Shown here: positions 2,678 to 48,497 of the stretch, in pieces | Layout: every line of letters starts with the position of its first letter | Position numbering within the stretch: position 1 is the stretch's first letter | DNA from: an uncultured virus (IMG/VR IMGVR_UViG_3300034072_002247) | Lineage: Duplodnaviria > Heunggongvirae > Uroviricota > Caudoviricetes | Virus record (IMG/VR): IMGVR_UViG_3300034072_002247 | DNA length: 64,000 nucleotides | Strand: one strand, 5' to 3' | Made by a program: the position numbers and the translations under genes | The notes under the pieces: model-generated | Database searches by the model: none | Told to the model about the DNA's origin: nothing | Seen by the model: the letters and a program-made list of their open reading frames with translations, nothing else

Positions 2678-5035
2678 ATGAGAGTTGTTTATTTTTTATC
2701 AGGAATGCCAGGAACTGGAAAAAGTACATTTATTAACAAGAATGAATTAGAAGCATTAACTATTTCATTAGACACACTTAGAAATATTTATTCAGGTTTA
2801 CAAACTGATTATATAGGAAATATTGTTTTATCCCAAGATAAAAATGATTATGTATATGCTAAATTTTTAGAAGCACTTAAATTTAGATTACAATTAGGTG
2901 GTAAAATTATTATAGATAATTTAAACCCAAAAAATAAAGACATTAAAGAAGTTGTTGAAATCTTAAATCAATATGACTATGATTATAAAGTTGTTCAATT
3001 TAAATTGGAAGATTTAAATTTTTATTTAGAAAGAAATAAGCAAAGAAGTAAATATAAAAGTATTCCAGAAGAAACTATAAAAAATATTTATAAACTATTT
3101 CAAGAAAGAGATTTTCCAAAAGATAAAATAATAACTCCTGAAGAAGCTATTAAAGAAATAAATGCCTCTCCTGAAGATTTACTTGAAGATGTTAGTCATT
3201 ATAAGAAAATTCACTTTATAGGTGATTTACAGGGTTGTTTTTATCCAATCTATAATTACTTAAAAACAAATGGAATAAAAGATGATGAACTTTATGTATT
3301 CTTAGGCGATTATATTGATAGAGGTATTGAAAATGATAAATGTTTAGAATTTGTTTTAAGCAATATACATAAGAAAAATTTTATATTTATAATGGGTAAC
3401 CATGAAAAACATTTATATAATTATAGCAATAATTTATTAAAGCCGCCAACTGAATTTATGTTGCAAACTTTGCCACAGTTGAAGCAGGCTAACTTCTCAA
3501 ATGATAAAATGAAAGAAGTTTATAGAAATCTTCATTTATTCAAATTTTTAAAACATAATGATAAAAAAATATTTGTATCACATGCGGGATTAATTACTAT
3601 TCCAGATAGACCTAATATATTAAATTTTGATGAATATATGAAAGGGCATGGTAGTTATGCATTTAATGTTGATGCTGCATTCCAAGAAAAAAATCAAACT
3701 AATGAATGGTATCAAGTTCACGGACATAGAAATAAATATAAATTAGATTTTAATAGTTATACAAAAAGCTTTGCGTTAGAAGCTGATGTAGAAAATGGTG
3801 GTAACTTACCTATTTTAAGACTTGATTCTAATGGTTTTGATGGGGTTTATATACATAATAAAATATTTAATAGAGAGTTAATAATGAAAAGAGAAAAAGA
3901 ACAAAATATGTTTTTAACAAAAGTTATAAATAGTAGTGTAGGTGAATTTTTAACAAGTAGAATTAATTATGATAAAAATGGATTAGAAATTATTAATGAA
4001 CTAAGAAAAAATGATCTTATTAGAGAAAAAACATTTGAAGATCTTCCTCATATATCTTCATTCAATTTCAAAAAACAAGCATTTTTTGATAAGAGATTTG
4101 ATGATGAATTAGTTATCCATGCAAGAGGATTATTCTTTAATAATTTAACAGGTGAAATTGTTGCTCGTGGTTTTGAAAAATTCTTTAATATTAATGAAAG
4201 AGGAATAGAGTCAGCTAAAATTGAGAATATTGAAAGAACATTCAAAATGCCAGTAACACTTTATGAGAAAGAAAATGGATTTTTAGGTTTAATTGGTTAT
4301 GATTCAAGTAATCATTCATTATTATATGCATCTAAAAGTGATATTGGTGGCGAATTTTCTCAATATCTTGAAAATATTGCTAAAACACAATTTAGTTCTG
4401 GAGAATTAGAATATTTAAAAATATTTGCTAACAAACATAATGTCAACTTTATATTTGAGGTTAATGATCCTATAAATGATCCACATATTATAAAATATGA
4501 AAAACCACATTTAGTTTTATTAAGTGTAGTAAAAAGAGAATTAAGATATTCTGAAATGTCTTATGACCACTTATTAGAATTTGCGAAAGAGTTCAAAGAC
4601 TTACCAGTTAAGAAAAAATTAGTACAAATTAACAATTTTAAATCTTTTATGGGCTTCTATAATTCAGTAAGTAAAGAAAGTGCATTAACTACAAAGAGAC
4701 AATTAGAAGGTTATGTTGTTCAAGATAATGATCTAAATATGGTTAAAATAAAACTACCTTTCTATAACTTCTGGAAATGTATGCGTGGTTTTATAGATCA
4801 GATGAATAATGCTGAAGATAAAAACAAAACATTTGAAATTACAAATACGGTTAACAACCATTTCTTAATTAATGATTCAGATAAAGAATCTGCTATTAAG
4901 TTTTTAGAATATGTTAAATCAATTCCAAGAGAAAACAGAGAAAGAGATATCATATCTTTAAGAGATGATTTCTTAAATAAAAATGATAATCAAAATAAGG
5001 TTGTTTTAGAAAAGAAAAATAAATTAAAAATATAA
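2678..5035 (+). CDS. Pnkp-like RNA repair fusion: P-loop kinase + calcineurin-like phosphoesterase + Rnl1-like RNA ligase
   Basis: GMPGTGKS Walker A; GDLQG, GDYIDRG, GNHE, HGH phosphoesterase motifs; ARGFEKFFN, EKENG, FIFE, EGYV, KIK ligase motifs. Confidence 0.85.
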   Translation: MRVVYFLSGMPGTGKSTFINKNELEALTISLDTLRNIYSGLQTDYIGNIVLSQDKNDYVYAKFLEALKFRLQLGGKIIIDNLNPKNKDIKEVVEILNQYDYDYKVVQFKLEDLNFYLERNKQRSKYKSIPEETIKNIYKLFQERDFPKDKIITPEEAIKEINASPEDLLEDVSHYKKIHFIGDLQGCFYPIYNYLKTNGIKDDELYVFLGDYIDRGIENDKCLEFVLSNIHKKNFIFIMGNHEKHLYNYSNNLLKPPTEFMLQTLPQLKQANFSNDKMKEVYRNLHLFKFLKHNDKKIFVSHAGLITIPDRPNILNFDEYMKGHGSYAFNVDAAFQEKNQTNEWYQVHGHRNKYKLDFNSYTKSFALEADVENGGNLPILRLDSNGFDGVYIHNKIFNRELIMKREKEQNMFLTKVINSSVGEFLTSRINYDKNGLEIINELRKNDLIREKTFEDLPHISSFNFKKQAFFDKRFDDELVIHARGLFFNNLTGEIVARGFEKFFNINERGIESAKIENIERTFKMPVTLYEKENGFLGLIGYDSSNHSLLYASKSDIGGEFSQYLENIAKTQFSSGELEYLKIFANKHNVNFIFEVNDPINDPHIIKYEKPHLVLLSVVKRELRYSEMSYDHLLEFAKEFKDLPVKKKLVQINNFKSFMGFYNSVSKESALTTKRQLEGYVVQDNDLNMVKIKLPFYNFWKCMRGFIDQMNNAEDKNKTFEITNTVNNHFLINDSDKESAIKFLEYVKSIPRENRERDIISLRDDFLNKNDNQNKVVLEKKNKLKI

Positions 5036-33852: not shown

Positions 33853-33881
33853 TTGACATTTAAAATTAATTAGTTTAAAAT
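33853..33881 (+). promoter_or_regulatory. sigma70 promoter of the tRNA-array leader
   Basis: TTGACA-17-TAAAAT. Confidence 0.8.
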
Positions 33882-33908: not shown

Positions 33909-33956
33909 ATGAAAGACGTAAAACCATTTATAATAGCGAGAGCAAGAATATCTTAA
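33909..33956 (+). CDS. tRNA-array leader peptide MKDVKPFIIARARIS
   Basis: AAGGA SD; codon run ATA ATA GCG AGA GCA AGA ATA before TCT TAA. Confidence 0.8.
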   Translation: MKDVKPFIIARARIS

Positions 33957-34041
33957 TGAGCTAACTCATTGAGAGGGGTTAGCGTGTCTAATCCCTAACT
34001 GCTAGTACAAAGCCTTTGGGGAAATCTCAAAGGCTTTTTTT
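33954..34041 (+). promoter_or_regulatory. transcription attenuator with alternative hairpins
   Basis: 1:2 = 33954-60/33965-71; 3:4 = 33974-82/33988-96; terminator 34009-21/34025-37 + U-tract; alternatives 33960-67/33976-83 and antiterminator 33992-98/34016-22. Confidence 0.75.
34009..34041 (+). terminator. attenuator terminator
   Basis: AAAGCCTTTGGGG-AAA-TCTCAAAGGCTTT followed by TTTT. Confidence 0.9.
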
Positions 34042-34133: not shown

Positions 34134-34162
34134 TTGACAAGTGAAAAAAGTTTAGGTAGAAT
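34134..34162 (+). promoter_or_regulatory. second, array-proximal sigma70 promoter with upstream IHF-consensus site
   Basis: TTGACA-17-TAGAAT; reverse-strand AATCAA-TAAC-TTA (WATCAANNNNTTR) at 34083-34095. Confidence 0.7.
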
Positions 34163-34221: not shown

Positions 34222-34300
34222 GGGGGCACATGTACCAATGGGCCGGCGAGGAAGGTTTGCACCTTTCCTGTGAAGAGTTCGATTCTCTTTGTCTCCACCA
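34222..34300 (+). tRNA. tRNA-Ala(TGC), atypical D-arm
   Basis: GGGGGCA/TGTCTCC with G3:U70, loop TT-TGC-AC, TTCGATT T-loop, ACCA. Confidence 0.8.
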
Positions 34301-34303
34301 AAT

Positions 34304-34449
34304 TTGTGCTATAGTTATATGTTGGTAAAATAGTTTTTATAGGTTAAAGTTTACAGTTCAATTCTGTATCACTTTATTATAAAGGATAGTTTAATTAGGT
34401 AAAACATTAACCATAGAAAAAGTATGTAGTTCGATTCTACATAGCACAA
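34304..34449 (+). ncRNA. anticodon-less double tRNA-like RNA (two tRNA bodies fused through the anticodon stems)
   Basis: acceptor TTGTGCTA/TAGCACAA; two D-arms with GG loops; two T-arms (TTCAATT, TTCGATT); internal closed acceptor hairpin; 13-bp connector 34334-47/34407-19; no CCA. Confidence 0.75.
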
Positions 34450-34455
34450 TAAAAC

Positions 34456-34531
34456 GGGGTGATAGCTCAGTTGGGAGAGCGTCTGAATGGCATTCAGAAG
34501 GTCGTGGGTTCGAACCCCATTCATTCCACCA
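34456..34531 (+). tRNA. tRNA-Ala(GGC)
   Basis: canonical cloverleaf, G3:U70, TCTGA-AT-GGC-AT-TCAGA, ACCA. Confidence 0.95.
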
Positions 34532-34543
34532 GATTTAAGATAT

Positions 34544-34618
34544 GGGCTTATAGTTTAATTGGGAAAATATCTGCCTTGCACGCAGAAGTTCAGAGTTCGA
34601 TTCTCTGTAGGTCCACCA
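34544..34618 (+). tRNA. tRNA-Ala(TGC)
   Basis: G3:U70, TCTGC-CT-TGC-AC-GCAGA, ACCA. Confidence 0.95.
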
Positions 34619-34874: not shown

Positions 34875-34950
34875 GGGGTTTTAGTTTAATATTGATAAAA
34901 CGCCGGGGTTAAACTCGGAAATGCAAGGTAAACACTTGTAGACTCCACCA
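34875..34950 (+). tRNA. Ala-identity tRNA-like RNA with 6-nt anticodon loop
   Basis: GGGGTTT/AGACTCC with G3:U70 and ACCA; CCGGG-GTTAAA-CTCGG; non-canonical T-loop GTAAACA. Confidence 0.7.
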
Positions 34951-35128: not shown

Positions 35129-35203
35129 GGGGATTTTAGTTTAACCGGGAAAACGGCTTGCAAGAGTGAGCAGTCTGTAGTTCAAGTCTACATATCTCCA
35201 CCA
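35129..35203 (+). tRNA. Ala-identity tRNA-like RNA with collapsed anticodon loop
   Basis: GGGGAT/ATCTCC with G3:U70 and ACCA; GCTTGC-AAGA-GTGAGC in place of the anticodon arm; intact D and T arms. Confidence 0.7.
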
Positions 35204-47891: not shown

Positions 47892-48497
47892 TTAACTTAA
47901 AAGTTCAAACATTTTTAGATCATCTCCACATTTATTTTTTAGTCTATCTATCCAGGCTTGATTTTTAACTTTGCAGCGAATAATTTTATTTTTTAAAAAT
48001 GCTTTACCAATTACACCTTCAAATGTCATTCCAGAAAAATTACCTTCTTTTATTTCTTTCATAACAATTTGATTTAATCTAAATATGCCTAAAAATTCTG
48101 CCATATCTATATTATCAAAAGCCTTAATGTAATCTTTGGGTGGTAAATATCCTATTTTACCTATATGTGCATCTATTAATTTTACTTTAAAATTATCATT
48201 TTCTTCATGAAATCCTGCAAATGATTTATCTCCATAAAATTCAAAAAATAATGTACCATCCTGCCATTTATTTTTTTTAAAAATATCATATACTGCTTTT
48301 TCATTTTGCATTATTAAGTCTTTTGATAAATTTAAAATACCTGAATCATCAGACATCAACTTTTTTCTGGTTCCAAATTTATCAAATCCTTTTTTTAATG
48401 AGAATTCAACTCTTATATTGGAGCCATCTAATTTATCAAATAGATAATAATCTAAATCTTTTATAACTTCTTTATTAATACTTGGATACTGTTGCAT
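47892..48497 (-). CDS. small RNA-ligase-family nucleotidyltransferase (Rnl2-like)
   Basis: YPSI, DKLDGSN (motif I), FGTR, FFEFYG, FEGVI, KVKN. Confidence 0.75.
   Translation of the reverse strand: MQQYPSINKEVIKDLDYYLFDKLDGSNIRVEFSLKKGFDKFGTRKKLMSDDSGILNLSKDLIMQNEKAVYDIFKKNKWQDGTLFFEFYGDKSFAGFHEENDNFKVKLIDAHIGKIGYLPPKDYIKAFDNIDMAEFLGIFRLNQIVMKEIKEGNFSGMTFEGVIGKAFLKNKIIRCKVKNQAWIDRLKNKCGDDLKMFELLS

Follow-up and report, generated by a model that had tools for sequence, protein, structure and literature searches.

What is a gene that sits in a tRNA array, carries two D-arms and two T-arms and has no anticodon? The question is raised by a 146-base element at positions 34304–34449 (+ strand) of the window, the whole 64,000-nucleotide stretch of viral DNA analysed here. 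The element is read as a non-coding RNA gene whose product would fold into two tRNA-shaped bodies joined at their anticodon positions, and it is very probably a selected RNA with a double-tRNA fold. This two-bodied tRNA mimic was delimited by an architecture parse, comparison with a close relative (locus L236), a parse of 16 members of a wider family, an alignment, and RNAalifold.

All parts of the element lie on the + strand. The outer acceptor 5' strand (34304–34311, with 34304 as position -1) forms 8 of 8 possible pairs with the outer acceptor 3' strand (34442–34449), giving 7 bp and one U-A pair between positions -1 and 73; the 3' strand ends with A73. U8-A9 and the outer D-arm follow (34312–34332), with GG in the loop, U at position 14, and a stem of 3 bp including a G-U pair (34314–34316/34329–34331) before an A·A mismatch. 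The fused anticodon stems make up a connector, the 5' strand of which (34334–34347) forms 13 bp with the 3' strand (34407–34419), with one G-U pair and a bulged A34341. Enclosed by the connector is the inner body, which begins with its variable loop and T-arm (34348–34368), the latter with a 5-bp stem and a canonical T-loop (34352–34368). A sealed acceptor-like hairpin comes next (34369–34386; 7 bp, bulged A34371, 3-nt loop, pair probabilities of 0.73–0.96), and then the inner U8-A9 and D-arm (34387–34406), with a 4-bp stem (34389–34392/34402–34405), GG in the loop, and an A15:U48 Levitt pair with position 34351. The outer variable loop and T-arm (34421–34441), the latter at 34425–34441 and with a 5-bp stem, lead back to the acceptor. 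Every segment named in the initial annotation was found where it had been placed, including its central proposal that the anticodon loop of one tRNA is replaced by a second, circularly permuted tRNA, as the inner order of variable loop, T-arm, acceptor-like stem, and D-arm spans 34348–34406. Its statement that all stems pair holds in so far as the 43 modelled base pairs are all standard, but overlooks the mismatch that leaves the outer D-stem at 3 bp and the bulge in the sealed hairpin.

Both bodies retain the elbow nucleotides G18, G19, U55, C56, and A58; in the outer one, U replaces A14 and A·A replaces the Levitt 15:48 pair. There is no anticodon loop, the anticodon-equivalent strands of both units being paired with each other. 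As both anticodon positions are fused and no anticodon is left, the element cannot read codons. Read as two separate tRNAs, its acceptors pair at only 3/7 and 2/7 positions, versus 7/7 when the strands are swapped. No CCA is encoded in the window copy, whereas all 12 other tRNA-shaped genes of the array end in CCA. The absence of CCA claimed earlier is therefore true of this copy and does not extend to the family, as L266, L455, L587, and L565 encode CCA after the discriminator.

In composition-preserving shuffles, an acceptor pairing at 7/7 positions and a connector as stable as the observed one each had a probability of 0.002. The minimum free energy (MFE) has a z-score of -2.5 and was equalled in 3 of 200 shuffles. 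The best ViennaRNA fold (-30.0) is not the double cloverleaf (-20.4), a gap of 9.6 kcal/mol; it keeps the acceptor, inner connector, and hairpin and loses the D- and T-arms. Pair probabilities follow the same division, mostly exceeding 0.9 in the acceptor, inner connector, and hairpin (0.42–0.88 for terminal pairs) and reaching at most 0.11 in the D- and T-stems. ViennaRNA also misses the cloverleaf in two of four neighbouring tRNAs. Folded apart, the two halves of the element reach only -19.2.

The plainest alternative is a neutral relic, in which adjacent tRNA genes from a tandem duplication have decayed and their similar strands cross-pair by chance. Comparison with L236, which carries the element and is ~90% identical to the window over 6 kb, argues against this. 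Only two of the 146 positions differ between the copies, and these lie together in the outer D-loop; this conservation equals that of the adjoining working tRNAs, which differ at 0–1 of ~76 positions. By comparison, changes affect 135 of 797 third codon positions, and in a nearby spacer 32 of 92 positions. Even against a 10% background the binomial probability of such conservation is 3e-5, and purifying selection on the element is supported by these counts. The element is also covered in full by contigs from two other studies (runs X2 and X5), which show 0 and 1 differences along their length. These contigs, together with the copy in L236, mean that the element is not an assembly artefact. One X2 contig has a 26-nt spacer in the place of the element, a weak hint with 30 letters on the short side that relatives without it may exist. 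Such a possible deletion allele would suit a relic. An RNA-labelled run (X15) gave no contig over the element, although contigs cannot show expression in any case.

The element is the second gene behind a sigma70-type promoter-like site (34134–34162, +), a consensus match only, at 11 of 12 positions, that heads the tRNA array. Its 5' leader is bounded by an odd tRNA-like gene ending in CCA (34224–34300, +), which was called by ARAGORN and differs from L236 at 2 of 81 bases. Downstream lies tRNA-Ala(GGC) (34456–34531, +; ARAGORN), and cleavage at its 5' end would release the 3' trailer of the element. Many genes of the array between 34456 and 35204 carry the G3:U70 alanine identity. These include two odd ones, at 34875–34949, with a degenerate T-loop and, as the alignment suggests, absent from L236, and at 35129–35201, with an irregular anticodon arm. 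A blastn search with the array returned only ordinary tRNA matches, in phages and plasmids. On the other side of the promoter, an unannotated segment (33911–34037) has 1 difference in 127 bases from L236. It starts with a short ORF, sits behind a promoter-like site (33853–33881), folds into two strong hairpins, and ends in a terminator-like hairpin. It has no Rfam match and is a candidate small RNA or leader peptide.

The window has a G+C content of 23% and encodes a Pnk-Rnl1 RNA-repair-type protein, ArgRS, PTH2, a Clp ATPase, a polyvalent ART protein, and many unknown proteins. Its ArgRS is recorded on a contig of 1,042,066 bases, and no relatives of it were found among the viral contigs searched. 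One window protein matches Variovorax and Vibrio plasmids of 0.8–0.9 Mb at 30–35% identity. We infer that the replicon is an AT-rich megaplasmid- or jumbo-phage-like element. The Pnk-phosphatase-Rnl1 fusion (2678–5035) and a second, weak RNA-ligase match (47892–48497) could provide tRNA-repair capacity on the same replicon.

The window copy does not appear to stand alone. On sequence comparison, about a dozen phage or prophage lineages, unrelated to one another, carry the same double-tRNA topology; this count was made by eye and includes the window and L236. Members were collected by gap-pattern scans and parsing, and the counts are lower bounds (at least the number given). Beyond the window and L236 they comprise L095/L104, L096/L115, L119, L131, L137/L245/L253, L252, L266, L455/L491/L587, L402, L476, and L565, of which L565 is two elements in tandem, and L402, L476, L565, and L131 were added by eye. 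Of 506 matches listed, 23 passed a first filter: 11 of the swapped type, 11 ordinary tandem tRNA pairs, which were dropped, and L082, which was set aside as an intermediate. A later filter passed 8 of 190 matches listed, with three new members and five repeats of known ones. The carriers are phages, prophages, or a large mobile element, and the element often lies in tRNA arrays. In Lentzea it was shown in 1 of 51 genomes searched (best 15 loci inspected), beside a recombinase-like ORF.

Other searches mark the borders of the family. An exact T-arm pattern found three loci, none in a tRNA-like context; a first gap pattern found 60 loci, mostly ordinary tandem tRNAs and none swapped; and a tetraloop pattern with a long second gap found 68 loci and no long-connector member. 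A query with L115 against GenBank phages found no annotated equivalent. Among the matches listed in the genome scan (at least 120), Bacteroidota YrlA-like multi-module elements dominate, and one member, L266, was found. The Lentzea loci L378–L391 were rejected as members and regarded as ordinary tRNA pairs, since model R1 also gives ordinary tandem tRNAs 40–77 bits. They are tandem ordinary tRNAs with near-identical bodies and different anticodons, in which an acceptor swap is possible in principle, and a pair of this type is a plausible precursor state. A Flavobacterium genome has 13 matches to the same model.

Several further groups of tRNA-like loci were seen alongside the family. Seven loci (L077, L151, L525, L544, L589, L603, and L605) form a related group of double tRNAs whose connectors are very short, rich in purines, and not complementary, and whose acceptor is extended; some of them end in CCA. 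This group was excluded from the statistics. A second phage architecture is a tandem of two permuted T-hairpin-D modules, each with a sealed acceptor (L114, L120, L159, L087, L075, L078, L132, L133, L164, L405, L410, and L434), and those of these loci that were scanned against Rfam gave sub-threshold YrlA matches. L067, L069, L079, L088, L098, and L101, which lie in tRNA arrays of phages, each consist of a single tRNA body that has lost its anticodon arm. Among the matches listed, L256–L375, mostly from Bacteroidota, are widespread YrlA-like elements in which a permuted module is followed by further T-arms, apparently as multi-module arrays.

Across the family, the swapped acceptor pairs at 7/7 positions in 12 of 16 parsed members. 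Covariation in the acceptor and hairpin is partly circular, as both pairings served as selection criteria, and the connector and Levitt tests consequently weigh more. The connector stems, which were not used for selection, pair at a mean of 4.4 and 4.3 of 5 positions, compared to 3.2 and 2.8 with permuted partners, and none of 20,000 permutations reached the observed value for either stem. Covariation in this helix was, next to a discrete transcript, what the initial annotation had named as separating a structured RNA from two decayed pseudogenes, and it is found here. In the unswapped register the connector pairs at a mean of 2.9. Levitt 15:48 pairs fit in 26 of 32 cases when swapped versus 20 of 32 when unswapped. 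When 13 members are aligned, pairing is seen in 92.3% of cells and two-sided change in 29 of 35 pairs, which none of 500 shuffles matched; the outer connector reaches only 68.8% in the fixed register of this alignment. Unaided, RNAalifold recovered all four D- and T-arms together with the acceptor and the hairpin; it did not recover the connector, which is gapped. The earlier proposal of a double-tRNA architecture under selection is therefore supported by conservation in L236, the connector statistics, the alignment, and RNAalifold.

The connector is typically two stems of ~5 bp around an internal loop, with variants ranging from the closed 13 bp of the window copy to a single stem in L119 and poor pairing in L137. 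Its length is ~11–15 nt per strand in most members and converges across lineages, which counts against chance cross-pairing between decayed genes. The same reading fails to account for swapped pairings that are kept with compensatory changes while the unswapped ones are lost. Many members, for example L096, L115, L252, L455, L491, L587, and L565, have an inner hairpin of 18 nt (7+4+7); across the members its length ranges over 16–21 nt. Acceptor and discriminator bases vary, with no amino-acid identity common to the members, and this lack of shared identity bases fits mimicry of shape.

The halves of individual elements retain a trace of where they came from. The two T-stems within one element share 4.9 of 8 bases, versus 3.1 when stems of different elements are compared (P=5e-5). 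The corresponding values for 252 ordinary tandem tRNA pairs are 3.11 and 3.07, and the probability of drawing 4.87 is 0.0002. In L266 and L131 the T-stems within the element are identical, and L082 is a near-identical tandem able to fold either way. Among 11 array genes, tRNA-Ala(UGC) at 34544–34618 gives the best or joint best alignment with each half of the window copy, although AT bias may inflate these scores; the best alignment of the second half ties with the odd gene at 35129–35201. The likeness of halves within one element suggests repeated origin from tandem tRNA duplications, with a strand swap after which the unswapped pairing was lost. A single old family under concerted evolution is a possible alternative. 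Similar halves and a tandem that folds either way are also what a neutral relic would leave. Given the conservation, the compensatory changes, and the converging connector, that reading is hardly tenable and is regarded as largely refuted.

If the element is a selected RNA that does not decode, its function presumably lies in its shape. In the fold read from the sequence, the first 5' acceptor strand pairs with the last 3' strand, and the two inner acceptor strands form the sealed hairpin. The shortened anticodon arms pair with each other and would place two L-shaped bodies tip to tip. The element is probably co-transcribed with the tRNA array. From known tRNA processing, RNase P would be expected to cut at its own acceptor and at the next tRNA. 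Trimming would follow release; some members encode CCA, and in the rest it would be either added or missing. Host T-loop and D-loop enzymes may modify it, as described for YrlA, which is modified by TruB and DusA according to the accessible parts of PMC4201824. The product would be a stable, uncleavable two-elbow ligand that competes for host proteins recognising the elbow or the acceptor/T arm. Possible targets include tRNA-attacking defence or stress enzymes, with the effect of sparing tRNAs that the mobile element needs.

A processed, non-decoding two-elbow mimic of this kind, acting as a competitive decoy for host tRNA-binding enzymes, is the reading tentatively favoured here, at somewhat short of an even chance. 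It is preferred because the carriers are mobile, no dedicated partner gene accompanies the members, the shape is kept without identity bases, and YrlA has itself been proposed to inhibit an anticodon nuclease competitively without being its substrate (accessible parts of PMC7790460). No recurrent partner gene family was found beside the members, and flanking ORFs of different lineages have nothing in common except one weak 30-residue match. The same neighbourhoods reveal no target either, which counts against a decoy. It is also not obvious why a decoy should need two bodies. The predicted MFE fold of the window copy, lying well below the double cloverleaf, and an outer core without A14 and the Levitt pair weigh on the same side. 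Many anticodon nucleases read the anticodon loop, which the element does not have. Lacking this loop, it could compete only for proteins whose contacts are with the elbow, with the acceptor/T arm, or with the L-shape as a whole.

A more specific proposal is that these RNAs could be repeatedly evolved bivalent tRNA mimics of phages and giant mobile elements, which present two elbows or acceptor arms at a roughly fixed spacing and so gain avidity for dimeric or paired tRNA-sensing or tRNA-cutting proteins. Such an RNA anti-defence factor, a domain-swapped dimer in one gene, would be previously undescribed; this version is possible but doubtful.

The sealed hairpin allows for a different outcome. 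RNase P could open it and CCA be added, so that the element is the precursor of a two-headed, two-piece RNA with two acceptor ends that are charged or sensed as uncharged. Roles might include cross-linking dimeric synthetases or modulating starvation signalling. There is precedent in Mycobacterium smegmatis YrlA, whose 7-bp sealed acceptor is RNase P-cut and CCA-tailed in vivo (accessible parts of PMC4201824). The 18-nt hairpin of many members and the CCA encoded on the outer end of several are consistent with such processing. Against it, the window hairpin is bulged, hairpins vary from 16 to 21 nt across members, identity bases are not shared, and a CCA/poly(A)-polymerase family gene occurs in only one of five large carriers tested; Rnl1 likewise occurs in one of these five. 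A two-headed product is therefore considered unlikely. The position of most members, either within a tRNA array or between the genes of a phage transcription unit, would also suit a cis-acting processing or stability element: a very stable double cloverleaf that marks points for RNase P along long phage transcripts or stops exonucleases, and that has no target of its own. A single tRNA-like body would be enough for this, however, and flanking tRNAs already provide cleavage sites in the window array. Selection that keeps both elbows in most members makes a purely cis-acting role quite improbable.

Whichever of these roles applies, the family is a searchable class of non-coding RNA that tRNA finders miss or mis-annotate. 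ARAGORN did not call the window element, and labels half of L137 as tRNA-Pro and half of L266 as tRNA-Tyr. The family also offers a simple path by which duplication of a tRNA in tandem can give rise to permuted YrlA-like modules, a point of relevance to the origin of bacterial Y RNAs. Should the decoy reading be correct, the element would represent RNA-based counter-defence against tRNA-targeting immunity. With a transcript of 140 nt, two questions become directly testable: for what reason phages retain tRNA-like genes that do not decode, and which partners bind elbows of the YrlA type.

Comparison with known RNAs places the element near several of them and inside none. It matches no Rfam family at E≤1, including tmRNA, GOLLD, and ROOL, and the comparison with the tRNA and YrlA covariance models suggested earlier agrees that it is neither an ordinary tRNA nor YrlA. 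With canonical tandem tRNA genes (RF00005) it shares the D- and T-arm motifs, 7-bp acceptor, U8-A9, G18-G19, and T-loop, but differs in having strands swapped between units, no anticodon loop, and no encoded CCA. The tRNA-like domain of tmRNA, mascRNA, and the permuted tRNA genes of algae and archaea are known cases of tRNA mimicry without decoding or of gene permutation. Each has one body only, the permuted genes mature into ordinary decoding tRNAs, and the mRNA domain of tmRNA has no counterpart in the element. Irregular and allo-tRNA polycistrons tied to toxin-antitoxin systems are translation-inactive, lie in phage or mobile clusters, and are suspected of a role in conflict (Mukai et al., PMC5389517). 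In the accessible parts of that paper these are single cloverleaves with anticodon arms, and no fused or permuted form occurs there. The literature searched, including accessible parts of PMC10424219, PMC10690425, PMC5737381, PMC5389517, and PMC7609411, holds no description of the two-bodied form, although subscription papers or supplements may contain one. The 10,006 candidate viral RNAs of PMC10690425, as presented in its accessible parts, could include the motif unnamed. Judged by their sequences, the double-tRNA mimics are an uncatalogued, recurrent class.

The closest likeness is to YrlA (RF02553). As far as it is described in the accessible parts of PMC4201824 and 10.1101/312249, YrlA contains the same permuted module of variable loop, T-arm, sealed acceptor hairpin, and D-arm, entered via an anticodon-equivalent stem, and likewise keeps the Levitt pair and lacks an anticodon. 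L095, L096, L119, and L131 score 28.8–33.3 bits on RF02553, for which the gathering score is 69, and YrlA was not found at gathering in 14 further loci. The shared module raises the prospect of an orphan Y RNA, which would have host Ro60 (Rsr) or another YrlA effector as its partner and redirect RNA decay. A TROVE (Ro60/Rsr) gene, which for YrlA would be expected on the same strand at a distance of up to ~4 kb, is, however, absent from all 12 viral carriers, seven of them ≥90% complete, and from the 64 window proteins; the Lentzea carrier has one ~4 Mb from its element. The 5' Ro-binding motif GNCGAAN0-1G of the YrlA terminal stem, as given in the accessible parts of PMC4201824, is absent from the window copy, and the word occurs in 2 of 16 members, in a non-equivalent place in the 3' connector. 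Together with the lack of a YrlA match at E≤1 for the window copy, this makes an orphan Y RNA very unlikely. In contrast to YrlA, T-stem sequences are not conserved across double-tRNA members. In YrlA, as described in those accessible parts, the stem ends in the Ro60-binding stem, while in the element it continues into a second tRNA body, whose parts are in the normal order and whose acceptor is open. By this comparison the element is not YrlA, but it may work like the YrlA effector domain.
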